Under the pieces are notes generated by a model that saw only the letters and a program-made list of their open reading frames with translations, did not search any database and was not told where the DNA came from. This document shows, piece after piece, positions 6,500-35,294 of a DNA stretch of 64,000 bases. The position numbers were made by a program, and so were the translations under genes. The stretch is taken from NCBI GenBank assembly GCA_943846615.1, contig OX044354.1, positions 622,359 through 686,358 of the forward strand, in the 5' to 3' direction. The stretch's first letter is position 1; the number at the start of each line of letters is the position of its first letter. The DNA is from an uncultured Amylibacter sp. (GTDB taxonomy: Bacteria; Pseudomonadota; Alphaproteobacteria; Rhodobacterales; Rhodobacteraceae).

Positions 6500-6546
6500 G
6501 GATTGCAAATCCGTGTACACGAGTTCGATTCTCGTACTCGCCTCCA
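6500..6546 (+). repeat. R1: 3' 47 nt of a tRNA-Cys(GCA) gene (anticodon loop to CCA), no 5' half
   Basis: Sequence is ggaTTGCAAAtccgt gtac ACGAGttcgattCTCGT actcgcc t cca. It shows the anticodon loop with GCA, the T-arm, the 3' acceptor strand, discriminator U and CCA. No matching GGCGAGT acceptor 5' strand lies upstream. Confidence 0.85.
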
Positions 6547-6937: not shown

Positions 6938-8926
6938 ATGCCAACTAATATTATTAAAAAAACCGCAATGGGTGCGTCTCTGATAGCAATGTCCGTGGCT
7001 GCTCCTGCAGTATTTGCGGATACTCCTGCAAAAACAGTTAACTGGGAAGGTACATATGCCGGTGTCGGTTTAGATATTTCAGACACGAGTGTTGCCGGCT
7101 CGACAGATTATGGGGGGATGTATGGTGGTGATATAAAGCCTTCTCCAAATATATCTCTTGGTAAAAACTGGCAATCTGGCAATGTTGTAAAAGGTATTGA
7201 GCTTTCCTTTTTTGGTGGAATGGATGGCGGCTATCTTTTTGATGAACCACAATTTAACAATGCATATTTGGCGACTTATGATTGGAATTGGGCAGCATCT
7301 ATTTCTGGCCGCGTTGGTATTGCGAATGGTCGCTGGCTAACTTACGCCTCCGCAGGTGTAACTTATGCCGATCTCTTTCTTTTAGCGAGTGAAGACCAAC
7401 CATTGGCTACTGACACATACGCAATTTTTTCCGATTCCAAACAATTGGGCTTCAACGCAGGATTTGGCGTGGAATATGCGTTAAATAAGGGTGGATCGTT
7501 GGGATTGGAATATGTTTATACAGCATTTCCATCGGTTTTTTCTGATACACGACCAAATGGTGCAACCTCAAACTCAGCAGGTGATCTTGCTACAGATTCC
7601 CATACGCTTCGGTTCACTTATAATTACTACTTTGGTGATGGATTGAAGGAAACTGAAAACAGTTCTCTAGATCCTTCCGCCTCATGGGCGGGTGGATATC
7701 TATCGACTTTTGCCCAAGCTGGATTAATTTTGGACGATAACCTGAATGGTAATTATTACGGAAACACTCGTGCCTATTCTTCTGCAAACGCTCTAGGGCT
7801 TGGCGTTGGATATAATTGGCAGATTGGTAATTTTGTTTACGGTGCGGCTGTTGATGTAGCCAGCGGTGGTTTAAAATCTGATTCATACTATGGGGACGAT
7901 TACGCAAAAGAGCTAGAGTGGAATTGGCTCACAACTATCAGAGGCCGTGCAGGTATCGCTACTGGTGATTTGTTATTTTACGGAACGGCAGGGCTTGCAG
8001 TGGCCGATGCTTTCATGGGCCTTTGTGACACAACTAATGCTTCTAACGGATGCGATGCTGCTGACTTTGAAAATACTTATGACGGCACTACTTTGGGATT
8101 GGTCGCTGGGATTGGTGCTGAATATCGCTTAAGCGGACGTAGCACAATTTTCATGGAATATAATACACTATCGTTTCCTTCGGTTTTATCCACGACTGCA
8201 GGAAGTACCGCACCTGTCGGAGCGGCAGATTCTACAGCAAGTGCGCACTTCTTGAAATTTGGATTAAATTATTCCTTTGCGCCGAGCCAATCAAAAAGCG
8301 CCGTTGAAACCCACGACTGGTCAGGAACTTACGCAGGGCTTGCTTTCGCACCTCAAAACCAATTTCTATCTGCAGCACATTACGATACTGGTGGTAACGG
8401 CGCTGAATTAGTGGTGCCTGCTGCTGTTACGTTTGGTAAAAATTGGCAAAGTGGAAATTCAGTGTGGGGCATTTCCGGTGATTTCATGGCTGGCGCTGAT
8501 GAAGTGCATATCCGTTGGGATGATTTTGATTATCAAATTGCTTCTCAGTGGAATTGGTCAGCGTCAATACGCGGTCGAGTGGGTATAGCAACTGGCGATG
8601 CTCTTTTATACGCAACTGCAGGTGTGACCGTTGCAGATATCGAAGCTAGATCTTGCGAATCCAATGGCCCTGGCTCTACGGATTGTACTTTTGCAGGCTC
8701 TTCCGATGTTGAAGCAAGTATTGACGATATCTTTGTTGGCCTCACAGCGGGTATAGGTATTGAGTATGCTGTGAAAGAGAATATGAGTATGTTTGCTGAA
8801 TACCGTTACACTGGATTTTCAAGTAAAAGCAGATTTGGATCGGCAGTTGCGTCAGACTATTATGGTGATTTTACAAATTACAGCCACGGAGTGTTGTTGG
8901 GATTGAACTACAAATTTGGTAAATAA
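6938..8926 (+). CDS. outer-membrane protein with three tandem Omp25/Omp31-type beta-barrel domains
   Basis: Signal peptide ...SVAAPAVFA. Three ~200-aa units (approx nt 7019-7642, 7685-8278, 8299-8923). Each unit has WNW.ASI(S/R)GR.GIA.G..L.Y..AG(V/L)..AD, G...AG.G.EY and a terminal (Y/L)NY.F motif. Confidence 0.8.
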   Translation: MPTNIIKKTAMGASLIAMSVAAPAVFADTPAKTVNWEGTYAGVGLDISDTSVAGSTDYGGMYGGDIKPSPNISLGKNWQSGNVVKGIELSFFGGMDGGYLFDEPQFNNAYLATYDWNWAASISGRVGIANGRWLTYASAGVTYADLFLLASEDQPLATDTYAIFSDSKQLGFNAGFGVEYALNKGGSLGLEYVYTAFPSVFSDTRPNGATSNSAGDLATDSHTLRFTYNYYFGDGLKETENSSLDPSASWAGGYLSTFAQAGLILDDNLNGNYYGNTRAYSSANALGLGVGYNWQIGNFVYGAAVDVASGGLKSDSYYGDDYAKELEWNWLTTIRGRAGIATGDLLFYGTAGLAVADAFMGLCDTTNASNGCDAADFENTYDGTTLGLVAGIGAEYRLSGRSTIFMEYNTLSFPSVLSTTAGSTAPVGAADSTASAHFLKFGLNYSFAPSQSKSAVETHDWSGTYAGLAFAPQNQFLSAAHYDTGGNGAELVVPAAVTFGKNWQSGNSVWGISGDFMAGADEVHIRWDDFDYQIASQWNWSASIRGRVGIATGDALLYATAGVTVADIEARSCESNGPGSTDCTFAGSSDVEASIDDIFVGLTAGIGIEYAVKENMSMFAEYRYTGFSSKSRFGSAVASDYYGDFTNYSHGVLLGLNYKFGK

Positions 8927-9037: not shown

Positions 9038-10561
9038 ATGAGTTCTAGCACCAGCCAATTAGCAAACAAAATTCAAACCTTAATTCATTCTGGAAGATTG
9101 AATGACGCTGAAGATATACTGAAGTCAGAATGTACGCTTGTCAAAATGGATGCTGACTTAACAACGGCTGCTGGACAAATTGCCTTACAGAAAGGTGACA
9201 TATACCAATCGGTCGTTCACTTTAACCGAGCGGTAAAATTGAAGCCAAATACCTGGGAGTTTTTGAACAACCTAGCTTTAATTAATCTGAAAACCGGGCG
9301 TCCAGATTTAGCGGTTAACGCTATTCGAAAATCTGCAAAACTCAATCCTAGAAATGCCGAGACATTAAAAATCGAAATAGAGGCTTTGTTTGCATTAAAC
9401 AAAATTGAACAAGCAAAATCGAAAATCGAAAATGCGATGTCGTCAGGCTTGAGGAATGTTCATGTTCTTGTCGATCTTGCACGTATGCATCGCGCTTTGG
9501 GTCAGAATAACAAAGCCCTAAAGATATATCGTGATATATCCAATTCCCCAACTGCAACGGCTGGGGCCATTTTTGGCATGGCGCAATTAGTTGATAAGCA
9601 CGACCCTTATCCCGAAGCATCTATTGTTAACACGATGATAGAGCGTGGCGATTTACCTCCTGATCAAATGGCGAATTTGCATCGTGCAACTGCCATCCGC
9701 GCCGACCAAATATCCGACTATGCAATTGCATTCAAACACCATGAGATGGCCAGCCAAATAATTTCACACGGGCGCGATGGGACGCAAAGACTTAGGAGTT
9801 TTCTCACGCACGCAAGAAAAAATTTCACCAAAGAGAACATATCAAAGGCCCAAAAACACACAAGTAAATCAACGAAGCCGGTATTCATTTTCGGCATGCC
9901 TCGCACCGGAACAACACTAGTGGAGCAAATTATTTCAGCGAATGAAGTCGTTCATGCTGGAGGTGAAATTGATTTTTTCAATCACGTTGTTAATAAATTT
10001 GAAAATCAATGGCCTGACCGTTCTGAATTAAAGTCAATAGCGAAGGATTACCTAACGCTTTTAAAGGAACATGGCGGCACGAAGAGTTATATAACAAACA
10101 AGTTACCCGGTAACTTTCAACATCTTTGGATTATCTCAGCGTTGTTCCCAAATGCAAAATTAATTTTTTGTCAACGCGACCCATGTGCCACGTGTACATC
10201 GTGCCTTACAACTTCACTAGGTACGGTGCATGACTATGTTGGGTCGCAAAAGAATCTAGCTGACTATTACAAAATGCATTTGCAACTTATGAACTTTTGG
10301 AAAGCTAACATTTCACAAGTTATTCATCATGTTCAGTATGAAAGACTCGTGAAATATCCAAAAACAGAAATTAAGAGCCTCGCAAAATTCTTAGGGATAG
10401 ATGCAACTCCTGAAATGTTTAATTTTCACACCTCAAATCGCCCTATCCAAACACCGAGCATCGATCAGGTACGCCGCCCCATGGATACAGGAAAAGTCAG
10501 TAGTTGGAGGCGTTACGAGCCCTTTTTGCAAGAGCTAATTATCGAGCTCTCTAAGACATAA
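9038..10561 (+). CDS. TPR-repeat protein with C-terminal sulfotransferase domain
   Basis: N-terminal TPR-like helices. FIFGMPRTGTTLVEQ is a PAPS 5'-phosphosulfate loop, and FCQRDPCATCTS is 3'-phosphate-motif-like. No signal peptide. Confidence 0.8.
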   Translation: MSSSTSQLANKIQTLIHSGRLNDAEDILKSECTLVKMDADLTTAAGQIALQKGDIYQSVVHFNRAVKLKPNTWEFLNNLALINLKTGRPDLAVNAIRKSAKLNPRNAETLKIEIEALFALNKIEQAKSKIENAMSSGLRNVHVLVDLARMHRALGQNNKALKIYRDISNSPTATAGAIFGMAQLVDKHDPYPEASIVNTMIERGDLPPDQMANLHRATAIRADQISDYAIAFKHHEMASQIISHGRDGTQRLRSFLTHARKNFTKENISKAQKHTSKSTKPVFIFGMPRTGTTLVEQIISANEVVHAGGEIDFFNHVVNKFENQWPDRSELKSIAKDYLTLLKEHGGTKSYITNKLPGNFQHLWIISALFPNAKLIFCQRDPCATCTSCLTTSLGTVHDYVGSQKNLADYYKMHLQLMNFWKANISQVIHHVQYERLVKYPKTEIKSLAKFLGIDATPEMFNFHTSNRPIQTPSIDQVRRPMDTGKVSSWRRYEPFLQELIIELSKT

Positions 10562-10631: not shown

Positions 10632-10755
10632 TTCCCCACACCTGACGTTGAGAATCGAATATCCATTTTACATTAAACTGATAACCCACTGATATTACAC
10701 GGGTACTCTGCGGTTCATTTTGCAAAATAATCTAATGAAATCAATGGATGTAGTA
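10632..10755 (+). repeat. cassette right arm (homologous to 27601-27723)
   Basis: Shared blocks include ttcccca..., tatccattttacatt, taacccactga, cggttcatttt, ctaatgaaatcaa and atgtagta, immediately 5' of R2 and R4. Confidence 0.65.
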
Positions 10756-10802
10756 GGATTGCAAATCCGTGTACACGAGTTCGATTCTCGTACTCGCCTC
10801 CA
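10756..10802 (+). repeat. R2: tRNA-Cys(GCA) 3' fragment, identical 47 nt to R1
   Basis: Same 47-mer as R1. The upstream sequence is not a tRNA 5' half. Confidence 0.85.
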
Positions 10803-23925: not shown

Positions 23926-26900
23926 TTAAAATCGGATGTTATACTTCAGGCCACCGCTTAACTGAATATGCCCACCACTGGAAGCTTGTAGCTCACCATT
24001 GGCGCTAAACGTTTTCAAGCCATCTTCGGATACACGCTTGAAACTTGCGCCCGCGAAACCACCAAGTAAATCGTTTGCACTGGCATCAAAGTTTAATGCC
24101 CCGCCCGCGACAGCGCCTGTTACGTCAGAACTAAGATCGAATTGCCCTACAAGACCCGCGCGCCATTCTACATTTTGCTGCGACCCATCCTTGTTTGTCG
24201 TGTTGCTAGGAAGTGCCAGTTGTGCGCGAACATCCAGAATATGCACATCACGCGCATCAATGCTTGCATTGTTTGTGACGCCCGTTTCGGTATAGCCGTC
24301 CATGAATAGGCCTGTGTAGCCAACGCGTAAGCTACCAATAGCGTCGCGCGCGGCAACTGATACAGGTTTCGAAAATGTCGCTGCTGGTGATATGAACCAG
24401 CCGTCATAGTTGGCCGAGGCCGTTTCGACCCCACCGCTGACTGTGTTGTTTGCAACATTACGTTCATGTTCATGATTGGCAGTCCCTGCCACAAGAGATA
24501 GATTTAGGTCATAGTTCCCAAGCCCCCCGTCCCAGCTTAGGCCTGCGAAGGCACTGCTGATATCCGTTTGGCTCGCATTGCCTTGAACATCTGCCGAACC
24601 TGAGCTGCCACCAGCAAAGATATTTATCGCCCCTGTGTCATAACCTGCAATAACACCAGCAAAGTGACTATCAACGGATGCTAACGATCCACTTGCGCCG
24701 GTCTGACCAATACTCCCAAAAGCACTTACCCATGCGCCTCGTTGTGAGGCTTGATAACTTTTACTTACTTCGGCTACGGGTTCCAATGTCGGAGCCGATT
24801 GACCCAAAACGTTGTGGATGCCGGTAGAAAGATCACCAATAAGCAAATTTGAAACGGCAAAACCAGTTGGGTCTACCGCTACAACATGGTCTGCAGATGG
24901 CATTACATAAGCCGTTGCATTCACCTCAGTAGGGCCATTGCCGGAAGTAAAACTTAAATCCGCATTTAGTCCAGCGCCGATGTTTAAAGTCCTGCTGCCA
25001 GCCCCACTCATTGCAATTTCGCCCATGATCTTAGAGCCGCTCAACAGTGTTAGGGCAGAATCTGCACCCGCCACATACACACGTCCAATCGTTCCCGAGT
25101 TTGTGATCGTGCTGTTGTCGCCATTGATAGAGGCGAAGGTTCCAATCGTACCCGAATTTGTAATCGCGCTATCGACGCCACTGGTAGAGGCGAAGGTTCC
25201 AATCGTTCCCGAGTTAGTGATCGCGCTGTTGTCGCCATTGGTCCGGACATAGCCGTCAATTGTGCCCGAGTTTGTGATCGCGCTGTTCGCGCGGCTAGTA
25301 GTGGCAGCGGTTACAATCGTGCCCGAGTTTATGATCGCGCTGTTCGCGCCATAGGTAGATGCATAGTTTCCAATCGTACCTGAGTTTGTGATCGTGCTGT
25401 CGGCGCCATTGGTCTGGGCATAGCCTGCTATCGTACCCGAGTTAGTGTTGGTGATCGCGCTGTTTTCTCTTAAAGTAAAGGCATCGCCATTTATCGTACC
25501 CGAGTTTGTGATCGCGCTGTTGGCGCCAAAGGTATTGGCAGAGCGTTCAATCGTGCCCGAGTTAGTGACCGCGCTGTTAGCGCCATAGGTCAGGGCATAG
25601 AGTTCAATCGTGCTAGAATTTGTTATCGCGCTGTTGTCGCCATTGGTAGTGGCAGAGGCTTTAATCGTGCCCGAGTTTATGATCGCGCTGTTAGCGCCAT
25701 AGGTCAGGGCATTGAGTTCAATCGTGCCTGAGTTAGTGATCGCGCTGTTGTGGCTACGTGTAGTGGCATAGCCTCCAATCGTGCCCGAGTTAGTGATCGC
25801 GCTGTACTCCTCCTCCGTATAGGCAAAGCTATAAATCGTGCCCGAGTTAGTGATCGCGCTGTTGGCGCCTTCGGCATCGGCAAAACCTTCAATCGTACCT
25901 GAGTTTGTGATCGCGCTGTTGGCGCCATAGGTCCGGGCATTGCCTTCAATCGTGCCCGAGTTTGTGATCGCGCTGTCGGCGCCAATGGTAGTGGCAGAGT
26001 TTCCAATCGTGCCCGAGTTAGTGATCGAGCTGTTGGCGCCACCGGTTGCGGCGAAAGATCCAATCGTTCCCGAGTTTGTAATTGCGCTATCGACGCCACT
26101 GGTAGAGGCGAAGGTTCCAATCGTGCTCGAGTTTGTGATCGCGCTGTTGTCGCCATAGGTCTGGGCATTCAAGTCAATGGTGTCCGAGTTTGTGATCGCG
26201 CTGTTGGTGCCCCTCGTAACGGCATAGTCTTCAATCGTGCCCGAGTTTGTGATCGCGCTGTTGTCTCCCTCAGTCAAAGCATCACCTTCAATCGTGCCCG
26301 AGTTTGTGATTGCGCTGTTGTTGCCTGTGGTAGAGGCATTGCCTCCAATCTTGTCCGAGTTTGTAATCGCGCTGTCGTCGCCTGTGGTAGAGGCAGGACC
26401 TTCAATCGTGTCCGAGTTAGTGATCGCGCTGTTGGCGCCATTTGTAGTGGCAGAGCCTTTAATCGTACCCGAGTTAGTGATCGCGCTGTTGGTGCCCCTG
26501 GTATGGGCGAAGGGTCCAATCGTACCTGAGTTTGTGATCGCGCTGTTGGCGCCATAGGTTCGGGCAAAGGCATTAATTGTGCCCGAGTTTATGATCTCGC
26601 TGTTCGTGCCATCGGTAAATGCGTAGTTTCCAATCGTACCTGAGTTCGTGATCGCGCTGTTGTTGGCGCCATCGGTCTGGGCATAGCCTACTATCGTACC
26701 CGAGTTAGTGTTAGTGATCGCGCTGTTTTCCCCCTCGGTATAGGCATTGGCATTTATCGTACCCGAGTTAGTGATCTCGCTGTTGGCGCCAAAGGTATTG
26801 GCAGAACGTTCAATCGTGCCCGAGTTAGTGATCGAGCTGTTAGCGCCATGGGTCAGGGCATTGACTTCAATCGTACCCGAGTTGTTAATAGTCCTACTAT

Positions 26901-27084
26901 CACCGCTGGTTTCGACGCCACCTGATAACGTTACTCCAGAATCTACGACACAAGGGTTGTTGTTTATACCTACAACACATGCGGCTTGCGCGAGCGCAGG
27001 TGTCGCCCCAATACCCGAAAGGCAAGTCGCAGTTAAAAGGCTGGAAACCAGTCCCGTTGGTGCATTGAAGTAATTACGTGTCAT
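23926..27084 (-). CDS. autotransporter with highly repetitive passenger domain
   Basis: The start at MTRNYF... (ATG 27084) gives a signal peptide ending ...ATPALAQA. The passenger is made of 32 AITNSGTI-type 19-aa units. The C-terminal ~280 aa form a beta-barrel ending GGLKYNIRF. Confidence 0.85.
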   Translation of the reverse strand: MTRNYFNAPTGLVSSLLTATCLSGIGATPALAQAACVVGINNNPCVVDSGVTLSGGVETSGDSRTINNSGTIEVNALTHGANSSITNSGTIERSANTFGANSEITNSGTINANAYTEGENSAITNTNSGTIVGYAQTDGANNSAITNSGTIGNYAFTDGTNSEIINSGTINAFARTYGANSAITNSGTIGPFAHTRGTNSAITNSGTIKGSATTNGANSAITNSDTIEGPASTTGDDSAITNSDKIGGNASTTGNNSAITNSGTIEGDALTEGDNSAITNSGTIEDYAVTRGTNSAITNSDTIDLNAQTYGDNSAITNSSTIGTFASTSGVDSAITNSGTIGSFAATGGANSSITNSGTIGNSATTIGADSAITNSGTIEGNARTYGANSAITNSGTIEGFADAEGANSAITNSGTIYSFAYTEEEYSAITNSGTIGGYATTRSHNSAITNSGTIELNALTYGANSAIINSGTIKASATTNGDNSAITNSSTIELYALTYGANSAVTNSGTIERSANTFGANSAITNSGTINGDAFTLRENSAITNTNSGTIAGYAQTNGADSTITNSGTIGNYASTYGANSAIINSGTIVTAATTSRANSAITNSGTIDGYVRTNGDNSAITNSGTIGTFASTSGVDSAITNSGTIGTFASINGDNSTITNSGTIGRVYVAGADSALTLLSGSKIMGEIAMSGAGSRTLNIGAGLNADLSFTSGNGPTEVNATAYVMPSADHVVAVDPTGFAVSNLLIGDLSTGIHNVLGQSAPTLEPVAEVSKSYQASQRGAWVSAFGSIGQTGASGSLASVDSHFAGVIAGYDTGAINIFAGGSSGSADVQGNASQTDISSAFAGLSWDGGLGNYDLNLSLVAGTANHEHERNVANNTVSGGVETASANYDGWFISPAATFSKPVSVAARDAIGSLRVGYTGLFMDGYTETGVTNNASIDARDVHILDVRAQLALPSNTTNKDGSQQNVEWRAGLVGQFDLSSDVTGAVAGGALNFDASANDLLGGFAGASFKRVSEDGLKTFSANGELQASSGGHIQLSGGLKYNIRF
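25054..26892 (-). repeat. 32 tandem 57-bp (19-codon) coding repeats
   Basis: Counted unit by unit from the translation. Two units are 21-22 aa. Units 2-5 resemble units 24-27, and unit 14 resembles unit 30, which indicates a higher-order duplication. Confidence 0.85.
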
Positions 27085-27600
27085 TGATGTGCCCTTAAAA
27101 TATTTTAAAGTATTTTCCTGTACAGCTAACAATTTATTAATATTAATAACAAGATGAAACATTCAAAATCGCAAGCGTTGTGTTGAAAGCATATTTTGGG
27201 AACGTACCTTAACCTCCTGAAATTGCGCCAAGCCATTATTTGCTAGCCCAAGGCGTAACGAAATATGGTGCTGAAACGGTATTCAGCTGAAGATGATCGC
27301 AAGATAGATATGCATCTACACGATGGCTTGGGTATTGTGAGTTCCAGTCGGAAACAGAAGCTTCAGACTAGAGTTTTTACTATTGGCGTAAGAAATTTGG
27401 AGCGCTGGATAATTGAGTTTTCACTTTTCCACGTCGGAAATGTCAACTTGGGCTCTTTGCCGGCATCGCCGGTAAGTTTTCCTCAATTGGTGGTCGAATG
27501 ACTGCTTTTCGAAAATTGGACCTAAAAGTTTATAGCCGAGCGAAGGTCTGCAATCCGCCCGTTTAAGTCATTGGACAGATTTGTCGAAACGGTCACTAAG

Positions 27601-27723
27601 TTCCCCATAGCCACATTTGAGGCCAATTATCCATTTTACATTCGACTATTAACCCACTGAAATTCCACGGGCACTCTACGGTTCATTTTACAAAAAAACC
27701 TAATGAAATCAACGAATGTAGTA
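27601..27723 (+). repeat. cassette right arm (homologous to 10632-10755)
   Basis: See the 10632-10755 entry. Confidence 0.65.
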
Positions 27724-27770
27724 GGATTGCAAATCCGTGTACACGAGTTCGATTCTCGTACTCGCCTCCA
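27724..27770 (+). repeat. R4: tRNA-Cys(GCA) 3' fragment, identical 47 nt to R1/R2
   Basis: Same 47-mer, followed by ataaaatcaatgggtta as at R1. Confidence 0.85.
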
Positions 27771-27812
27771 ATAAAATCAATGGGTTACATCGATTTTAAA
27801 GTAATATTAAAT

Positions 27813-27847
27813 GTAAAATCATAGGTAAGATGGTAAAATAGTAAGAT
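27813..27847 (+). repeat. four direct GTAA(A/G)AT repeats (candidate recombinase arm sites)
   Basis: GTAAAAT at 27813, GTAAGAT at 27825, GTAAAAT at 27833 and GTAAGAT at 27841. GTAAAA(T/C) also occurs right of R1 (6588, 6621) and R3 (23576, 23588). Confidence 0.4.
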
Positions 27848-27989
27848 ACTTTGCATTGAGCTCCTACACATTGCTATTTTAATCTCTTCCATACATTCAC
27901 CTACCGCCATCATATTTTACCAAATTTAGCTATAACGTTCGCAAGTGGTTATTCATTGATCTCAAAAAACAAATCAGATTTTATTTCCA

Positions 27990-30900
27990 TTACGGAAAAG
28001 TATTTTTTAGCAGTTGATTACGAATACAGCCTGCTAAACTCAGTATATTAATTGGATCGAAAAAATGCCCATGGCCGCCACGGGTCGTATCCAGTTGATA
28101 TCCCTGTCGGTAAGTTTCGTCACAAAGGTTTTGAAAACTAAATGCTTCATTTTCGTAACGGCTTTCTGGGTGCAGAAAACTCTCCGCACCGAAAATATAC
28201 CCAACGCTTTTGCTATAAGGTAGAATATTGGCTTGTTCCATTAGAACTAAATGCGTGACCTCGCGGCCCGCGTTTAACAAAAGTTCTGCTAGAGAATGTG
28301 CGATGGGGCCACCTTGGCAATTACCGCCGATAAGTAGAGACCCTGTTGGATGAAGTGTTTGTATTTCATTGAAGTAATGAGAAGCCAATGCTGTGATTTG
28401 TGACTTTACATCATCAACAAGTAAATATGCAGAACGCATTCCATGTACGCGAATATCCGGCGCCAGTGCCTCGGCAAGTGCGGTCAGTTCGTGCCCGCCT
28501 TGGAAGCACCAAAACAACTGCTGCTTTGCGCCGCAATCGTCGGAAGATACAATCAGACTGTGATCATTTTCGCGGTGGCCTTGCCACTCTGCAACATAAC
28601 GCAACTGTTTTTGGAAGATTTCGGGTTGCAGCGGGCTGTCGACCAACATCTGATTCACTGCGCTTTTTTCACGAGCCAGAAGCCTATCAACTTGGCCTGC
28701 TAGAAGTTTCAATGTCGTGATTTGCCCCAAGATCCCCGGAGAAACCGAGATATCAAAATGTTTCTCGATCATAAGAATGAGCATCATATGATGCAAAGAG
28801 TCGCCGCCGTTTGCCTGAAAGTCATGCATCCTTCCAAATTTTGTTTGACCAGCGAAAACTTGCTGCCATATTTCCGCCAATGCGCGTTCAGTGGACGTGA
28901 TGGGAGCAATGTAAGGTATATCTTGTTGGCTCAATAGCGACGCATGGATACGAAAGGCCGCCCGATCTTTTTTACCTGATCGCGTTTTTGGGATACTCGG
29001 TACAATGACAAATCTTGAAGGTTGCATATGTGTTGGTATCGCAGTTTTTGCATGTTGCCTTAGCGTATTGATGGTTAAGGATTTGGGGGTATCTGTAACG
29101 ACGTATGCCGTTAGCTTTGAGCCGTTTTCGTCAAGTTGAGCAATACAATCGCTGACACCCAAAAACTGTGTAATTTGGGCTTCGACATCTTCCAGTTCTA
29201 TGCGGACACCGTTTCGTTTTACTTGGTTGTCGATACGCCCAATGAATTCAATTTTTCCGTCAGCATTGTGACGTGCAAAATCACCGGTTTTGAAGACAAT
29301 TTGATCGTCAGTATGGTGTGTCCTTAACACGGTAAAGCGATCTGTTTGTGTTGCATTTCGCCCCAAATATGAATGGCAAATACCGCCAGAGAGGCAGATT
29401 TCACCGACTTCGCCTTGTTGAACGCGACATGTATCCGCATTCAGTAGATGCAGTGCCACGTGCGGTAAAGTTCTTCCAATACTGACAGGCACCCCTTTTT
29501 CGAACGCCCAGATGGTTGAAAAAATTGCGGCCTCTGCAGGGCCGTAGATATTGAACACCTTGGCCATCGTTGCAAGCCGTTCAATTTCATGAATTTCAAT
29601 TTTTTCACCACCGGTCATGATCACACGCAGGTTCGGAAATGATCTAACAGGCAAGGTTCGCCAAACACTTGGGGTCGCGAGAATGTGAGATATCTGTTGA
29701 TCATGAATAAAATTAGCCAGATCCGCACCCACGATTGGGCCACGCTGATGCGGATAGATCAGCGTGGCGCCACTGGTCAATGCAAGCAGCATGTCCGAGA
29801 TAGCAGCATCAAAACTCAACGATGAGACCGACCCAAGTCGGCAACCAGCATCGATACTGAGTTGTTGGATCGCTCCAGTTAACATTTCAATCAACGCATT
29901 GTGACCCGTAGCGATACCTTTGGGCTGACCAGTTGTTCCAGAAGTAAAAGTTATGAAAGCGGTCTTTGCAGATGGCACATGCGTTTCAGCTGGAGCTTTT
30001 TTTGAGGGCTCTAACGATAATACATCCGCAAGCAACAGTGTTTTAATGTGAAACTCATCCAAGCATAATTTGCAACTGCCGTAAGTCAGCAGGACAGAGG
30101 CTTCACTGGCATCCAACATTGAAGCCAAACGTGCTCTGGGCAATGTCTCGTCCAATAACAAACAACTACATCCCATGCGCAAAACAGCAACGATAGCGCA
30201 AATGAGATCGGTTGATGGTAGGAATCCGATCGCCACCACATCACCTGTTTGAACACCGGAGCTAAAGAGTTTGGATGCGAGATCCGCCGATGCGGCACCC
30301 AGCTCGCCATAGGTTAAAGATTGCGCGCCACATACGACGGCAATTGCATTTGGCATTTGTTCTGATGCAGTCAAAATTGACGCAGCGACGTTTCCAATAT
30401 GGGGTGTTTCCATGGCATCACTAGGAATTGTAATGTGATTGGCCAGATGGCGTTGGCAAAGATCGTAATCTTCGGAGTATTGTGCGGTTAAGCTCTTTGC
30501 TGCAATTTTAATGTCGCCTGCACCAGCCACGTAGACGATATCATTTGGTGTCAGATCTTCGGACACGGCCTGTATCAGGTCTTGTACGTTGTCAAATTGA
30601 AAGCATGTGTCGAGTTGTTTCGCAATCTGATCCATTACAGCATGTTTTGTGTGTGGTGCCCGTGGCGTTTCCCCCTTGGGATCGAGATCAAGTAAGAACA
30701 CCATATCACTTTGCTTCAACGCTGCAGCGAATTCTGCCGTACGCGTTTGCGTTCGGGAATATGTTTGCGGCTGGAACAGTGTAATAACCCGTTCACCATT
30801 GCCAGCAATCGACTTTATTGTTTCAAGGTTCGTCGCAAGCTCTTTTGGGTGATTGGCAAAATCGTCAATGATCCGTGGGCCCTGCCCCATTGAAACATCT

Positions 30901-31859
30901 CCCCACCTACCATTAACCCCCGCGAAGCTGGCAAGGCCCGATTTGATCTCATCCAACGGCAGTTGCAGCGCATCACAGGCAGCAATACAGGCGAGTGCAT
31001 TTTGCACCATATGTCGGCCTGGCTGCTTTATATAAATTTCCCCTAAATTTCGCCCGTTGTGAACAACGTCGAATTTGGACCCGTCCCAATGATGGATGAT
31101 ATTCTGCGCGCTCCATTCGTTTTCGGCGTTGAGTCCGTAGGTGATAATCGAGCCTGTGGATTGGTTAACGTTCGGGGCAAAGTGTTGGCAATCCCCGTTT
31201 AGAATGACGGTCCCTTCTACCGTAACCTGTGAAATCAATGCGTTAAATTCGGCCTTCAATGCCTGTTGGCCGCCATAGTGTTCTGCATGATCGTCTGTAA
31301 GGTTGGTAAGAACTGCGATATTTGGAGTGTAGTGCCTTATATTTCCAAATGCTTCGCATGCCTCAGCAACAAGGGTTTTGCCGACGCCATTGGCGCGACC
31401 GAAGGGGGTGTTTTTTTGACGAAGAGACGCGCCCAGAATATAGCTTGTTGTTGGGTCATATTGCGACAATACATGTGCGATCATGGCAGAGGTTGTCGAT
31501 TTTCCATGAGAACCCGCGACAAATATCGAGTGTTTCGCCTTAGCAAGCGAGTTCAAAAATATGGCGCGCCGTTTGATCGTTATGCCCTGTGCGCGAGCAG
31601 CCGTTATCATTGGATGTGTTTCGGGAACAGCGTCACTGACCACCATTATGTCGATGCTGTTTGCGATCTCTTTTGACAAAACCGCACCACGTGCAACCAA
31701 CGCATCGATATTTGGGCCATGACGATCATCCCAGCCATGAACACAGACATTTAGGTCAAGAAGGTAATGCGCAATAGCGCTCATTCCACTGCCACCTAGG
31801 CCCAGAAGAAAAACGTTTTCTGCGCGTTGGGCCGTCATTTCAAACGTCAATGTCGCCAC
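27990..31859 (-). CDS. fusion protein: MurC/Mpl-like Mur ligase + NRPS adenylation + carrier (PCP) + thioesterase-like domain
   Basis: Mur ligase motifs: GLGGSGMS, GSHGKSTT, NLTDDHAEHY, GRHMVQNALA, DDFANHP, FQPQTYSRT (approx nt 30435-31859). A domain motifs: FTSGTTGQPKG, FDAA, NIYGPAE, FKTGD, GRIDNQVKRNGVRIELEDVE, PKTRSGKKDR. PCP: GGDSL (Ser codon 28797-28799). TE: GGNCQGG (Cys codon 28317-28319) and GGHGHFF. The start is either GTG 31859 or ATG 31838. Confidence 0.85.
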   Translation of the reverse strand: MATLTFEMTAQRAENVFLLGLGGSGMSAIAHYLLDLNVCVHGWDDRHGPNIDALVARGAVLSKEIANSIDIMVVSDAVPETHPMITAARAQGITIKRRAIFLNSLAKAKHSIFVAGSHGKSTTSAMIAHVLSQYDPTTSYILGASLRQKNTPFGRANGVGKTLVAEACEAFGNIRHYTPNIAVLTNLTDDHAEHYGGQQALKAEFNALISQVTVEGTVILNGDCQHFAPNVNQSTGSIITYGLNAENEWSAQNIIHHWDGSKFDVVHNGRNLGEIYIKQPGRHMVQNALACIAACDALQLPLDEIKSGLASFAGVNGRWGDVSMGQGPRIIDDFANHPKELATNLETIKSIAGNGERVITLFQPQTYSRTQTRTAEFAAALKQSDMVFLLDLDPKGETPRAPHTKHAVMDQIAKQLDTCFQFDNVQDLIQAVSEDLTPNDIVYVAGAGDIKIAAKSLTAQYSEDYDLCQRHLANHITIPSDAMETPHIGNVAASILTASEQMPNAIAVVCGAQSLTYGELGAASADLASKLFSSGVQTGDVVAIGFLPSTDLICAIVAVLRMGCSCLLLDETLPRARLASMLDASEASVLLTYGSCKLCLDEFHIKTLLLADVLSLEPSKKAPAETHVPSAKTAFITFTSGTTGQPKGIATGHNALIEMLTGAIQQLSIDAGCRLGSVSSLSFDAAISDMLLALTSGATLIYPHQRGPIVGADLANFIHDQQISHILATPSVWRTLPVRSFPNLRVIMTGGEKIEIHEIERLATMAKVFNIYGPAEAAIFSTIWAFEKGVPVSIGRTLPHVALHLLNADTCRVQQGEVGEICLSGGICHSYLGRNATQTDRFTVLRTHHTDDQIVFKTGDFARHNADGKIEFIGRIDNQVKRNGVRIELEDVEAQITQFLGVSDCIAQLDENGSKLTAYVVTDTPKSLTINTLRQHAKTAIPTHMQPSRFVIVPSIPKTRSGKKDRAAFRIHASLLSQQDIPYIAPITSTERALAEIWQQVFAGQTKFGRMHDFQANGGDSLHHMMLILMIEKHFDISVSPGILGQITTLKLLAGQVDRLLAREKSAVNQMLVDSPLQPEIFQKQLRYVAEWQGHRENDHSLIVSSDDCGAKQQLFWCFQGGHELTALAEALAPDIRVHGMRSAYLLVDDVKSQITALASHYFNEIQTLHPTGSLLIGGNCQGGPIAHSLAELLLNAGREVTHLVLMEQANILPYSKSVGYIFGAESFLHPESRYENEAFSFQNLCDETYRQGYQLDTTRGGHGHFFDPINILSLAGCIRNQLLKNTFP

Positions 31860-32412
31860 GCTCTGCGTATTTGGCGATAGACGCCAACTCGTTCAGCACG
31901 TGTTTGCGGCCTCGTTCGGTTTTATACCAAGTATCAGCCTGTATATCATTGGGCGACGTTGCAGGTTGCAGGACATATTTCAGTTTTTTCGGGAAGCAAG
32001 TTTTGGCCGTCATGAGCGCACGGCGCATATGTAACGGTTTAGCGCAAATGGCCACGGTTTCGATGTTTTCCCATCCTATGGTTTCTTCAATAGCCGCCCT
32101 CGTAAACGTGAAGTTTTCCAAGGTGTTGGTCGCCTTGGTTTCAAATTCCAACACACTTTCTGGGATGCCCGAATTGATCGCAATCCGCGCCATGACTTTG
32201 TATTCAGGAGTATGTTCTGAATTGTCCAATTGTGAAGCAGGGCCAAAGCCAGTGATTAAAATACGGCTCACTTGCCCAGCGTTAAAGAGCAAAATTGCCG
32301 GGTCGATACTGGATGGTGACGGCGCGCCCAAAACAACGCAAAGATCGACTGGTTCTGGCGGATCAGACAAAAACAGAAACTCTGTCAAGGCGGTTTTCGT
32401 ATCCTTATTCAT
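31840..32412 (-). CDS. DUF218 (YdcF/SanA/ElyC-like) protein
   Basis: LCVVLGAPS..., ILITGFGP, ETKATNTLENF and AICAKPLHMRRA match the DUF218 pattern. ATG 32412 is preferred over 32520, which would sit 4 nt from the divergent start at 32525. The stop TGA at 31840-31842 is 1 nt from ATG 31838 of the fusion gene. Confidence 0.75.
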   Translation of the reverse strand: MNKDTKTALTEFLFLSDPPEPVDLCVVLGAPSPSSIDPAILLFNAGQVSRILITGFGPASQLDNSEHTPEYKVMARIAINSGIPESVLEFETKATNTLENFTFTRAAIEETIGWENIETVAICAKPLHMRRALMTAKTCFPKKLKYVLQPATSPNDIQADTWYKTERGRKHVLNELASIAKYAERGDIDV

Positions 32413-32524
32413 GCGTAGCTCTAAGTATTGATGTCGTTGCGTTGAAACCTTGTAAGACGTATAAAATCCATCGACAATATCAGCAAGTACAATACCTGCA
32501 TTGCACACCAAGGGCGGCATCTGA

Positions 32525-33265
32525 ATGAACCAACGTGATCATGTAATTTGGTTTACGGCGCGGACCGGTTCAACCTGGCTGGCATCCATGCTGTTTTCGG
32601 CAGGATTTCCCAAAGCAAGTGAGTATTTCCACCCCAGTAAATATGATCGCCGCGCTGCCTATATGGGAGCTAACACGCCAGAGGACTATGTTCGCAGAAC
32701 ACGCGAGCAGCGCGCAAAAAACGGTGTGTTTTTGCATGAAATGACGTTCCAATTTTGGGAGATGATGTCAAAAAAGTCGACGATAATGTCAATGTTGGAT
32801 TTTCGAAATCCTTCAATAATGCTGTTCCGCGAGGATATCATTCAACAAGCCATTGCAATCCATTGCGCGATGCAAACTGGTAAGTGGCACAACTATGGTT
32901 TTTCGCAAAATACAGAAGCCATCACTCATGATGCGGAAGCGATCAAGAGATATGCACAGTTTATCATTGATCAAGAAAATGGAATGCGGCGACATCGGGA
33001 TCAATTGATCCCCAATGCATGCTATTTCAGTTATGAAAAACTGCGCCAGTTGCCAGCATCTACGGTTGCCTCCAAGGTCGGGCAACATTTGGACTACACG
33101 GCGTTCGACGCGTCAATAATAACGAGTATCCATCAACGCGTTGCATCACAAAAAAACGTCGAAATTTATGACAAATTTCAAAAAACGCATCCGAATTTTT
33201 GCAAAGCAGCACAGCAATCGCGGCGATGGTTATTTGACGCCCAATTAACAAACGGACTTTCTTAA
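32525..33265 (+). CDS. Stf0-like sulfotransferase
   Basis: N-terminal VIWFTARTGSTWLASML resembles the Stf0-family PAPS loop (..RSGSTLL..). ~245 aa. Confidence 0.65.
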   Translation: MNQRDHVIWFTARTGSTWLASMLFSAGFPKASEYFHPSKYDRRAAYMGANTPEDYVRRTREQRAKNGVFLHEMTFQFWEMMSKKSTIMSMLDFRNPSIMLFREDIIQQAIAIHCAMQTGKWHNYGFSQNTEAITHDAEAIKRYAQFIIDQENGMRRHRDQLIPNACYFSYEKLRQLPASTVASKVGQHLDYTAFDASIITSIHQRVASQKNVEIYDKFQKTHPNFCKAAQQSRRWLFDAQLTNGLS

Positions 33266-33428
33266 TACCACGATTGCCATCTCGTCGTGGCCCAAAAATT
33301 TTCCATAGAACAATGGCTTAGTTAGTTTAAGATATGTCCTTATTTGTGCCCCATCAACGACTTTGGAACAAATTCGAGTATTTGAATAATGGAGGGTTTC
33401 TGGTTCATCTAACAATTAGGAATTAAGC

Positions 33429-33512
33429 ATGACAAAGAAATCAGGGCAGTCGAAAACGGCCGCGGACAAATTGGTATAGAGCATCCGCCGCAAGACGCGG
33501 CAAACGGCTTAA
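33429..33512 (+). mobile_element. possible IS3-family orfA 5' remnant
   Basis: Translates as MTKKSGQSKTAADKLV*SIRRKTRQTA*. This resembles the N-terminus M.KKSGQSKT..EKLVK.IRRATR of an IS3-family transposase OrfA as I remember it. It is interrupted by stop codons and only ~80 nt are retained. Confidence 0.3.
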
Positions 33513-33779
33513 AATATGGGCGTCACGCCACTGTACCCGTTCTGGCCACATCAACTATACTGGTGGAAGATGAAGGAAATGCGTTGTCGGCCGCCAAACG
33601 GGAAAATCTGGCTGGGCCGTTTTTACATGGTGGAAACCCAAATCTTACTGAAGGTAGAGGACTACGCATGACGATTGTGTAGACAATCGCAACCCAACAC
33701 CAAGGATGTTTGAGTTTTGAACAAACATCCACAGGTGTGCGGGCGCGATTGGAAATTAACGATCTAGTTTCTAAAAGCT

Positions 33780-35294
33780 TTAGTCGCCGTCTGCCACTCC
33801 CGCAGATCGCAACCTTGCACGACGTGCCCGGAAACTAGGCAGTAGGACCAACAAAACCGATATAACGAGAAGGCCAAGCGTCATTGGGCGTTCCCAGATA
33901 AATGACACGCCGTCATACAGCTGCATCGAACGGGCGAAATTGTCTTCGAGCATGCCGCCCAAAATGAAACCGATCAACAATGGCGCCAATGGATAATCCG
34001 CAAAACGTAGAGCCGTTGCACAAACACCGAAGGCGACCAACAACAACAATTCCGTCGCATTATTTTGGCCAATATAGGCGCCCATCAAGGTAAAGAACAA
34101 AATGTATGGAATTAAGTAATTGCGCGGTACTGCCAATATCTTGGCGATGTATGGGATTAACGGAAGGTTTAAGACCAGTAAAACGAAGTTACCAATGTAC
34201 ATAGAAATGATAACGGCCCAGAAAATCTGTGGTTCGTCAATCATCAGGCGTGGGCCCGGTGTGACGTTCAACGCAATCAATGCACCCAACAAAATTGCTG
34301 TGGTGCCAGAGCCTGGAATGCCCAATGTCAGCAATGGAACGAATGATCCCGTACAAGCCGCGTTGTTAGCAGTTTCAGGTGCGGCGAGACCCTTGATTGA
34401 TCCCTTACCAAATTTTTCTTGTTCATCTTTGGATGCAATATTGCGCTCAACGGCGTAGCCCAAGAAGCTGGCGATAGTGGCCCCTGCCCCTGGCAGAACG
34501 CCGATAAAGAAACCCTGGATAGACTGGCGGCCAATAACGGGTGCGATTGATTTTGCCTCTGTGCGAGTGATGCGCAAATCTTTGATTTCTTCACTTTTGC
34601 CTGTTTCTGATGCGGCTGGGTTCAAGACCAGAAACAATGCTTCGGGCAGTGCGAACATCGCCATGGCAAGCGTGACAAAGCCTAAGCCAGATTGCAGATC
34701 CATGATACCCATTGTGAAACGTGGCAAGCTGAACATTGTGCCTTCGCCGACGGTTCCCAGCATGAGGCCAAGGATGGTCATCATCAATGCTTTGGCAACT
34801 TGACCCGTGCCTGCGAAGGCCGCGATGGCGGATAGACCCACGATCATAAGGGCGAAGTATTCAGCCGAGTGGAATAACAGTGCGACAGATGACAATGCTG
34901 GTGCAAAGATCATCAACAAGATTGCGCCGATAGTACCCCCACAAAAACTGGCGATCGCGGCAACGGTTAGAGCTTTACCTGCCTTGCCTTGCTTCGCCAT
35001 TGGATAACCATCGAAACTGGTGGCGACGGTGCCGGCGACACCGGGTGCGTTAAGTAGGATTGATGAAGTGGAACCGCCAAAGATTGCGCCGTAATATACG
35101 CCAGCCAGCAGGATGATTGCGGCGGCAGGGTCGCCCATAGAAATGGCAACGGGGATCATGATTGCGATGATCGACATAGGGCCAAGGCCCGGCAACATTC
35201 CGATGAATGTCCCGATCAAACAGCCACCAATCACCATCAACAACATTTGCACGGAAAAGGCCGTTTGTAGGCCGAGTAGGATACCTTCTAACAT
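33780..35294 (-). CDS. tctA: tripartite tricarboxylate transporter large permease
   Basis: 504 aa, polytopic, with TctA-type sequence (GMLPGLGP..., GVLPGAGATIASF). Confidence 0.85.
   Translation of the reverse strand: MLEGILLGLQTAFSVQMLLMVIGGCLIGTFIGMLPGLGPMSIIAIMIPVAISMGDPAAAIILLAGVYYGAIFGGSTSSILLNAPGVAGTVATSFDGYPMAKQGKAGKALTVAAIASFCGGTIGAILLMIFAPALSSVALLFHSAEYFALMIVGLSAIAAFAGTGQVAKALMMTILGLMLGTVGEGTMFSLPRFTMGIMDLQSGLGFVTLAMAMFALPEALFLVLNPAASETGKSEEIKDLRITRTEAKSIAPVIGRQSIQGFFIGVLPGAGATIASFLGYAVERNIASKDEQEKFGKGSIKGLAAPETANNAACTGSFVPLLTLGIPGSGTTAILLGALIALNVTPGPRLMIDEPQIFWAVIISMYIGNFVLLVLNLPLIPYIAKILAVPRNYLIPYILFFTLMGAYIGQNNATELLLLVAFGVCATALRFADYPLAPLLIGFILGGMLEDNFARSMQLYDGVSFIWERPMTLGLLVISVLLVLLPSFRARRARLRSAGVADGD

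Follow-up and report, generated by a model that had tools for sequence, protein, structure and literature searches.

A MurC-type ligase fused to a nonribosomal peptide synthetase module and coupled to a DUF218 gene: a widespread, undescribed bacterial enzyme family

Introduction

What would a bacterium make with a peptidoglycan-type ligase fused to a module of a nonribosomal peptide synthetase (NRPS)? The question is raised by a stretch of 64,000 nucleotides from an uncultured Amylibacter sp. (GenBank assembly GCA_943846615.1, contig OX044354.1; hereafter the window), in which a single gene encodes a MurC-like ligase followed by an adenylation (A), a peptidyl carrier protein (PCP) and a thioesterase (TE) domain, beside a DUF218 gene and a divergent Stf0-like sulfotransferase gene. 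An initial annotation, made from the sequence alone, had suggested that the Mur ligase may replace the condensation (C) domain of such a module. Here, we report that the DUF218 and MurC-A-PCP-TE genes form the two-gene core of an uncharacterised, horizontally mobile pathway, with an extra sulfotransferase gene in the window, and that the fusion protein represents a real, widespread, previously undescribed bacterial enzyme family.

Fusion gene and enzyme family

The two core genes and the domains of the fusion protein are located in the window as follows.

27990..31838, minus strand: fusion gene (MurC-like ligase, A domain, PCP, Cys-type TE), 1282 aa, or 1289 aa if started at GTG 31859
30489..31817, minus strand: MurC-like ligase domain, residues ~15-457
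28950..30392, minus strand: NRPS adenylation domain, residues ~490-970, with Asp684 (=Asp235) and Lys963 (=Lys517)
28686..28892, minus strand: peptidyl carrier domain, residues ~990-1058, with phosphopantetheine site GGDS1021L
28005..28607, minus strand: thioesterase-fold domain, residues ~1085-1285, with triad Cys1181 (GGNCQGG), Glu1208 and His1263
31840..32412, minus strand: gene for a soluble YdcF-like DUF218 protein (190 aa, start M37), in translational coupling with the fusion gene

In the list of open reading frames (ORFs), the minus-strand frame at 27990..31859 runs without interruption and gives 1289 aa from a GTG start; translation probably begins at ATG 31838, and the resulting 1282-aa product is identical to a database protein (P0001/P0123). 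The initial annotation had read four parts in this ORF, which the ORF list and Pfam bear out, and the motifs it quoted all occur in the translation. The Mur-ligase fold claimed for the first ~470 aa was recovered as Mur_ligase N, M and C at residues 19-448 (PF01225, 44.7 bits; PF08245, 95 bits; PF02875, 55.7 bits; all above cutoff). AMP-binding and AMP-binding_C followed at residues 499-963 (PF00501, 198 bits), then PP-binding at 994-1055 (PF00550, 21.7 bits; cutoff 20.8) and Thioesterase at 1127-1208 (PF00975, 28.2 bits; cutoff 26.4). Among NCBIfam models, the adenylation model TIGR01733 scored 297.5 bits (cutoff 317.4), and murC (TIGR01082) scored 330 bits, just under its equivalog cutoff of 335.1, against 124 bits for mpl. 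The Pfam scan found no condensation domain (PF00668, HHxxxDG) in the fusion protein, as had been stated, and the Asp expected to pair with an alpha-amino group is present as Asp684, invariant in the family. Judged by their sequences, all four domains are catalytically intact at the domain level.

A protein search with the fusion protein returned ~60 clusters (90% identity level), one of them at 75% identity (P0002; hereafter the 75% relative) and the others at 29-38%, with alignments that cover 97-99% of the query. The full-length clusters show a Pfam architecture identical to that of the window protein and come from, among others, a Pseudoruegeria metagenome-assembled genome (MAG), Polynucleobacter paneuropaeus and an uncultured Roseococcus. 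Their source annotation reads only "UDP-N-acetylmuramate--L-alanine ligase", a misleading label for proteins of 1260-1890 aa. In addition, metagenomes were scanned with a profile built on the TE domain specific to the family, and the ORFs of the 80 loci returned were scored with hidden Markov models (HMMs) built from the fusion domains and known neighbours; Mur, A, PCP and TE were joined in a single ORF at 37 loci. The expectation that other genomes would carry these four parts on one polypeptide therefore holds in both searches.

Residue conservation was assessed in an alignment of 41 fusion proteins, the members counted below. In the Mur domain, P-loop residues G116, H118, G119, K120 and T122 as well as E166, E169, H191, R318, D333 and H337 are invariant or near-invariant. 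The A domain has invariant T639-K647, D684 (Asp235), Y772-E776, D860, R875-K881 and K963 (Lys517), and the PCP D1020-S1021-L1022, whereas in the C-terminal domain G1179-x-C1181-Q-G, E1208 and H1263 are invariant or near-invariant.

Might the fusion instead stem from misassembly or a frameshift, or be a functionless pseudogene in decay? Some metagenome members of the family (L090, L118, P0278 and P0356) are frameshifted or truncated; P0278 and P0356 had been considered as stand-alone Mur proteins acting in trans and were rejected as truncated or frameshifted fusion genes. However, the window frame is intact, the catalytic residues of the four domains are invariant, 4 contigs from 3 sources encode an identical protein, and ~100 homologous loci, at ~30% identity, have the same architecture. 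A chimeric assembly is therefore excluded, also for the domain junction that the initial annotation had marked for checking, and the pseudogene reading is effectively refuted by cross-genome conservation; we give the artefact practically no chance.

Long forms of 1720-1890 aa, with ~450 extra residues after the TE, make up 13 of ~63 clusters and 7 of the 37 metagenome loci. The sequence signal of the extra domain is weak (PF13524 in six of the seven). Its structural model (predicted local distance difference test, pLDDT, 81.7) matches only GT-B/GT4 glycosyltransferases acting on nucleoside diphosphate sugars, such as BshA, MshA, PglA and HepE, so a GT-B glycosyltransferase fold is predicted.

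DUF218 partner

The DUF218 gene ends one base before the fusion ATG at 31838 (...GAC GTT TGA A ATG ACG GCC...), confirming the TGA-A-ATG junction described earlier. Its start, M37 at 32412, is backed by 190-aa homologues, and its product matches PF02698 with 62.7 bits. DUF218 lies immediately upstream in every one of seven gene-called distant members. Across the wider set, 27 Mur-fusion metagenome loci extend 700 bp or more upstream, and all have DUF218 directly upstream on the same strand, as do 8 of 8 other Mur-fusion loci; it is missing from all 14 loci at which the Cys-type TE is not part of a Mur fusion (Fisher p = 3e-11; the loci include some near-duplicates). DUF218 is thus an invariant partner whose presence follows that of the Mur domain.

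No membrane segment is present in the DUF218 proteins of the cassettes, which are soluble like YdcF. Conserved positions are D23, E70, E91, N96, T97, N100, K125, H128, R130 and R131; T97, H128, E70/E91, R130 and R131 are at least 95% conserved among 36 cassette homologues. A Thr/His/Glu set has been proposed as catalytic in SanA and falls among these residues, and SanA-type DUF218 proteins have been suggested to bind lipid II, a compound with diphospho-MurNAc (N-acetylmuramic acid), or to alter it. The partner therefore resembles SanA, ElyC and YdcF in its domain, in its Thr/His/Glu-type residues (T97, H128, E91/E70) and, for YdcF, in solubility; unlike them, it matches no NCBIfam model and its gene is always paired with that of a MurC-like fusion.

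Mur domain

The Mur residues were mapped through the comparison of PaMpl and HiMurC in PMC3060825 and set against 116 diverse stand-alone MurCs. The domain keeps the UDP loop G20-M26, D44, the P-loop G116-T123, the Mg ligands E166, E169 and H191, and R369; that is, the HiMurC UDP glycine loop, Asp49, Lys129/Thr130, Glu173, Glu176, His198 and Arg380 all have retained equivalents. Of these, K120/S121, E166, E169, H191, G20-M26 and D44 are invariant in the family and the same in the 116 MurCs. The top PDB sequence matches are all MurC (E 1e-59 to 1e-36). Accordingly, the domain is like MurC of H. influenzae (1P3D) and M. bovis (7BVA) in its three Mur domains, its UDP, ATP and Mg residues and its Arg380 equivalent. 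It differs from them in being fused to an NRPS module, in being island-borne rather than part of a dcw cluster, in forming a separate clade (neighbour-joining bootstrap 89/100, with a narrow first reference set), and in the changes of His376 to Gln/Leu and Phe174 to Leu.

In MurC, the L-Ala pocket consists of Tyr346, His348, His376, Arg377 and Arg380, with His376 of HiMurC among the residues that contact the incoming L-Ala (PMC3060825). The full set is not found in the window protein, which has F334, N336, Q365, T366 and R369, nor in the fused family, which has F/Y, H, Q/L, L and R. His376 is replaced by Gln or Leu in 40 of the 41 fused domains (Gln365 in the window protein) and kept in 116 of 116 MurCs; Phe174 is Leu family-wide. 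Only these two changes set the fused domains apart from every MurC examined. The loss of His376 is suggestive but modest evidence, from sequence, for a different amine substrate.

The fused family also reads EACEAF where MurC reads EADESD, with Leu in place of Arg377. We considered this stretch as a remodelled amine pocket and rejected it as functional evidence: two stand-alone EACEAY proteins, with Leu at Arg377, are the housekeeping MurC of an Armatimonadota MAG, encoded as murG-murC-murB in a complete dcw cluster. Changes of the EACEAF type, being shared with genuine MurC, therefore mark a MurC sub-lineage, which may be the one from which the fused domains derive. The housekeeping MurC in the Armatimonadota MAG GCA_052743995.1 (L171, 7001-8377) reads EACEAY, with Cys at HiMurC Asp175, and FQPHLYSR.

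The window protein and the 75% relative deviate at otherwise invariant positions (S43W, N82H, E84M and H336N), and the same lineage carries the sulfotransferase and a distinct A-domain code, DASLMGIIFK.

Thioesterase and adenylation domains

The initial annotation had described a thioesterase-like end; the fold stands, and what had been missed is an invariant cysteine nucleophile. All 41 members have Cys (GGNCQGG or G[VI]CQGG; GxCxG) in place of the Ser of GxSxG, followed 27 residues later by the acid (Glu, rarely Asp) and by a GxH near the C-terminus. No solved TE aligned to the C-terminal domain by sequence. An AlphaFold model built from a 23-sequence alignment (pLDDT 91.3; predicted template modelling score 0.90) had NRPS and polyketide synthase TEs as its best PDB matches in Foldseek (E down to 9e-9, TM ~0.6-0.65), including the tautomycetin TE, the NocB TE, AB3403 (rank 4), SrfTE, the Pks13 TE and the SulM PCP-TE (rank 24).

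According to the SulM structure paper, a Cys nucleophile occurs among structurally known NRPS TEs only in SulM, ObiF and AB3403; SulM and ObiF carry Gln-Cys-Asn and an Asp relocated after beta7, whereas the AB3403 acid stays after beta6. The motif here is Asn-Cys-Gln and the acid has the canonical post-beta6 position, so of the features of the beta-lactam/lactone TEs the Cys nucleophile is present, and the relocated Asp, the Gln-Cys-Asn and the diaminopropionate (Dap)-specific A domain are absent. By these residues, the TE is of the AB3403 kind rather than the beta-lactam/lactone kind.

The same TE subtype was found in other settings: a Condensation-A-PCP-TE protein (L094; Condensation PF00668, 372 bits), A-PCP-TE (L098), a tetratricopeptide repeat (TPR)-TE protein (L100), and A-PCP-Sulfotransferase-TE proteins (L156, 4172-7693; L160, 2813-6334). 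The TE of L094 is identical in subtype to that of the window (LFWCxQ, HGMRSGHL, GGNCQGG), and on this shared chassis a canonical C domain can evidently take the position of the Mur ligase. L094 and AB3403 (A. baumannii C-A-PCP-TE, PDB 4ZXH; functionally uncharacterised, PMC11298585) are like the fusion in being single-module terminating NRPSs with a TE Cys and a post-beta6 acid; unlike them, the fusion has a MurC-type ligase in place of the starting C domain and an obligatory DUF218. A Formyl_trans-A-PCP-TE protein (P0111) was rejected as a member of this chassis, its TE having an ordinary Ser.

Further Cys-type TEs were observed in passing. The layout of L156 and L160 resembles the sulfotransferase-TE of CurM/olefin synthase, except that the nucleophile is Cys. 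In L126 (896-1516) and L128 (6956-7576), a stand-alone Cys-TE ORF of 206 aa is found beside an opposite-strand gene of glycoside hydrolase family 3 (GH3); these ORFs may be what is left of decayed fusion genes. Two A-PCP-TE(Cys) proteins with an A domain like that of fatty acyl-AMP ligases (L145, 1550-4756; L158, 783-3602) have an extra, unassigned C-terminal domain of ~150 aa, which reads ...HWxDxxG...APxxxGxYxLxxDxVEEGxxWF....

The best sequence match of the A-PCP half was the LgrA initiation module (376 bits), with 218 bits for AB3403. Anchored at P281 = P730, the approximate specificity code DASLMGIIFK is hydrophobic, with no acidic residue for Dap. Other clades have DVAAIAAIYK, DVASICVIYK and DVGSIAAVEK. 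Co-variation of the code with the Mur pocket residues was tried as a signal and discarded, since it follows the clades and is inseparable from phylogeny.

Proposed mechanism

A route can be proposed from these domains. The A domain, with its hydrophobic pocket in the window protein, would load an amino acid onto the PCP, and the Mur domain would activate UDP-MurNAc, or a closely related UDP-sugar acid, by phosphorylating its carboxylate. As acceptor, the Mur domain would take the amine of the PCP-tethered aminoacyl thioester, not free L-Ala, and so play the part of a starter condensation domain. The UDP-MurNAc-aminoacyl-S-PCP would then be handed to the TE cysteine, where the thioester would be kept, favouring transfer to a nucleophile or cyclisation over hydrolysis. 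The cytosolic DUF218 protein may bind or process diphospho-MurNAc, as part either of the substrate or of the product.

That the Mur domain is a C-domain surrogate, which uses UDP-MurNAc or a related sugar acid to N-acylate the amino acid held by the PCP before the Cys-TE off-loads the product, strikes us as a good possibility that stops short of probable. The idea, already raised in the initial annotation, gains indirect support because L094 has a Condensation-A-PCP-TE layout with the same Cys-TE and because DUF218 strictly tracks the Mur domain; it loses some in that the pocket changes are mostly shared with housekeeping MurC. The fuller version, in which a MurC-type ligase was recruited as an NRPS condensation catalyst, the Cys-TE transfers or cyclises the UDP-MurNAc-aminoacyl thioester to give a new conjugate class, and DUF218 works on diphospho-MurNAc, we regard as possible, if on the doubtful side. 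The strict coupling of a soluble DUF218 to a MurC-like enzyme is independent genomic evidence that would fit DUF218 handling diphospho-MurNAc compounds.

Several points weigh against the surrogate reading. The 75% relative keeps His376, and the fused domains still have Arg380, the residue by which MurC binds the carboxylate of L-Ala. Asp175Cys, Ser177Ala, Asp178Phe/Tyr and Arg377Leu also occur in a housekeeping MurC of a dcw cluster (P0296). The A-domain codes vary by clade, none with a confident substrate match, and the nucleotide-sugar of the window enzyme may differ because of S43W, N82H, E84M and H336N. Finally, the action of the Mur domain on a tethered amine is suggested indirectly, its carboxylate substrate by similarity, and the roles of DUF218, GH3, the glycosyltransferase domain and the sulfotransferase by context.

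In an alternative reading, the Mur domain would work like an ordinary MurC and join UDP-MurNAc to a free amino acid. The A-PCP-TE(Cys) part would then add a second, carrier-activated aminoacyl group to a side-chain amine or a sugar hydroxyl of that product, as in a Fem/MurM-type branching step with a PCP in place of tRNA, or the TE would release a derivative for ligation by Mur. Such a division of labour would agree with a nearly complete MurC active site, including the equivalents of Arg380 (R369), Tyr346 and His348, with the presence of most "special" residues in housekeeping MurC, and with a Cys-TE that retains the thioester energy and so suits acyl transfer to an external nucleophile. It accounts less well for the replacement of His376 in 40 of 41 members versus 0 of 116 MurCs and for a domain order that mirrors C-A-PCP-TE with Mur in the C position; moreover, with a single A domain, the Mur pocket alone would have to select the second amino acid. 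We rate this alternative as unlikely but credible.

Neighbouring genes

GH3 genes were found at 10 of 30 metagenome loci with downstream sequence and at 3 of the 8 loci first gene-called. These neighbours are single-domain proteins whose best model is NagZ-type beta-N-acetylhexosaminidase (150-162 bits; cutoff 207). A periplasmic location was considered and dropped, the N-terminal hydrophobic segment being weak, and absent in L085. Together, the GT-B domain and the NagZ-like GH3 neighbours would tie the family to amino-sugar or nucleotide-sugar chemistry; under the surrogate reading, the fused glycosyltransferase and the hexosaminidase may process the sugar part in those lineages.

The GH3 genes raise another explanation, a peptidoglycan-salvage variant of Mpl or MurC that would cooperate with the NagZ-like enzyme in putting recycled material back onto UDP-MurNAc, the NRPS half re-activating a recycled amino acid or peptide. 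A NagZ-like gene is adjacent in about one-third of loci, and the vicinity of L085 encodes an SBP_bac_5 peptide-binding protein, an amidohydrolase, an S9 peptidase and a gamma-glutamyltranspeptidase. However, the Mur domain scores as MurC (330 bits) and not as Mpl (124 bits), GH3 is absent from the window and two-thirds of loci, the genes are distributed patchily, on islands and not in the core genome, and the fused GT-B domain and polysaccharide genes suit synthesis better. Salvage appears improbable. The polysaccharide genes (GT2, Wzx, Wzy and GtrA) surround two family loci. Unbiased clustering of all remaining neighbours revealed no other recurrent family; the next commonest were ABC ATPase (4 loci), methyltransferase (3) and IS3 transposase (3).

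On the other side of the core genes, the window has the following.

32413..32524, strand not applicable: divergent intergenic region between the DUF218 and sulfotransferase genes, 112 bp
32525..33265, plus strand: Stf0-like sulfotransferase gene, 246 aa, lineage-specific accessory

The divergent Stf0-like gene across ~110 bp was correctly identified at the outset: the gap is 112 bp, and the protein matches Pfam Stf0 (PF09037) with 38.6 bits (cutoff 22). The NCBIfam equivalog NF047724 gave 34 bits (cutoff 400); the protein is therefore placed as a sulfotransferase of the Stf0 fold, at family level only. Promoter scans, including the 112-bp intergenic region, and terminator scans gave chance-level results. 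The gene was seen only in the window and the 75% relative, the Stf0 HMM matching 0 of 80 metagenome loci. Of the co-occurrence put up for testing, the DUF218 part (27/27 and 8/8) thus holds and the sulfotransferase part does not, nor can this gene be counted as part of the conserved system. In the window lineage, a sulfotransferase using 3'-phosphoadenosine-5'-phosphosulfate would modify the product or a tethered intermediate.

A Cys-type TE next to a sulfotransferase also recalls strained-ring or elimination chemistry, that is, release of a monobactam or beta-lactone as by SulM/SulN (sulfazecin) and ObiF, or sulfate-assisted release of the CurM type, in the window lineage. SulM, SulN and ObiF parallel the present locus in the Cys nucleophile of an NRPS TE and in a sulfotransferase that acts in trans: SulN sulfonates the PCP-bound intermediate before the SulM Cys-TE cyclises it. 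L156, moreover, fuses a sulfotransferase and this TE type in cis. The locus differs from SulM and ObiF in having no relocated Asp, no Gln-Cys-Asn and no Dap-specific A domain, and its sulfotransferase, which nearly all family members lack, belongs to the Stf0-like kind, a type of carbohydrate sulfotransferase. With the post-beta6 acid, the Asn-Cys-Gln order and a hydrophobic pocket rather than a Dap-type one, the monobactam-like reading was rejected on all three SulM features, and we consider strained-ring chemistry as a whole very improbable here.

A second sulfotransferase gene, with TPR and Sulfotransfer_3 domains, was observed at window 9038-10561 (plus strand); it adjoins an outer membrane protein beta-barrel gene (6938-8926) and lies between tRNA-Cys fragments.

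Island setting

The three-gene cassette is bounded by two elements.

27622..27784, plus strand: island end unit, 91-bp "X" arm + 59-nt 3' tRNA-Cys(GCA) + ATAAAATCAATGGG, left cassette boundary
33351..33515, plus strand: end of an IS3-family element / decayed OrfA start, right cassette boundary

Positions 27712-27770 equal the 3' 59 nt of tRNA-Cys (GCA loop, T-arm and acceptor end). Exact copies of the tRNA-Cys(GCA) 3' end occur at three window sites on the plus strand (6518-6546, 10774-10802 and 27742-27770), two of which are preceded by the ~91-bp "X" arm (10660-10760 and 27622-27712); an intact tRNA was not found in the 64-kb window. In the 75% relative, an intact tRNA-Cys(GCA) lies 181 bp past the fusion stop and the "X" arm is at the distal end of the cassette. 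DNA is shared between these two loci only across 27724-33276 (5.57 kb, 77% identity), exactly the three genes. The IS3 element-end matches of 33351-33515 include Rhodobacteraceae plasmids. No near match was found among PLSDB plasmids. At L002, the DUF218 and fusion pair is flanked by integrase genes; the large ORFs of window 1-24 kb include no integrase.

From the shared three-gene span, the tRNA-Cys fragments, the "X" arms and the IS3 stump, we therefore conclude that the cassette is carried by a family of islands that integrate at tRNA-Cys, and such islands appear to have accreted in tandem in this genome. The accessory islet between a tRNA-Cys fragment and an IS-like stump, proposed in the initial annotation, is accordingly real.

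Two nearby features were noted. At 23926-27162 (minus strand), a 1078-aa ORF without Pfam match has ~40 degenerate repeats (...SAITNSGTI...), an autotransporter-like C-terminal region and a raised GC of 0.51-0.54. At 34129-34256 (plus strand), Rfam RF02646 "Ruegeria cis8 sRNA" (82.6 bits) lies antisense inside a TctA gene (33780-35294, minus strand). This sRNA match and the IS3 matches to Rhodobacteraceae plasmids suggest that the host belongs to the roseobacter group.

Relation to known systems and implications

Natural chimeras in which a Mur ligase is fused to another enzyme (MurE-MurF, MurC-Ddl, MurC-MurB, MurG-MurC and MurD-FtsW) are the nearest precedent for the architecture and appeared as weaker matches in our protein search. 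In the 2023 survey of such chimeras, all partners are peptidoglycan-pathway enzymes, and an NRPS partner is not listed. Our literature search on Mur-ligase/NRPS combinations found no relevant description, in line with the earlier statement that no characterised system has this architecture. No NCBIfam or PADLOC model covers the fusion/DUF218 system, and the PADLOC anti-phage models matched none of the fusion, DUF218 and sulfotransferase proteins. All parts come from known families; their combination and the proposed logic are undescribed.

That logic has a parallel in LgrA of linear gramicidin synthetase (F-A-PCP), in which an N-terminal formyltransferase domain, not a C domain, N-acylates (formylates) the PCP-bound amino acid. 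Both would use an N-terminal domain to acylate a PCP-bound amino acid. Unlike the formyltransferase of LgrA, which uses a formyl-tetrahydrofolate donor, the domain here is an ATP-dependent acyl-phosphate ligase with a UDP-binding domain.

If the Mur domain does acylate a carrier-bound amino acid, the family would provide a new way to start nonribosomal assembly lines, with an acyl-phosphate ligase replacing the C domain, and would link cell-wall precursor chemistry (UDP-MurNAc) to secondary metabolism. Its products may be muropeptide-like signals, surface-glycan decorations or antibiotic-like mimics of peptidoglycan intermediates (MraY/Mur-pathway). Through the coupling of DUF218 to the fusion, the mode of action of SanA and ElyC becomes directly testable with soluble proteins, and an action of DUF218 in this pathway would be the first biochemical handle on the SanA/ElyC/YdcF family.

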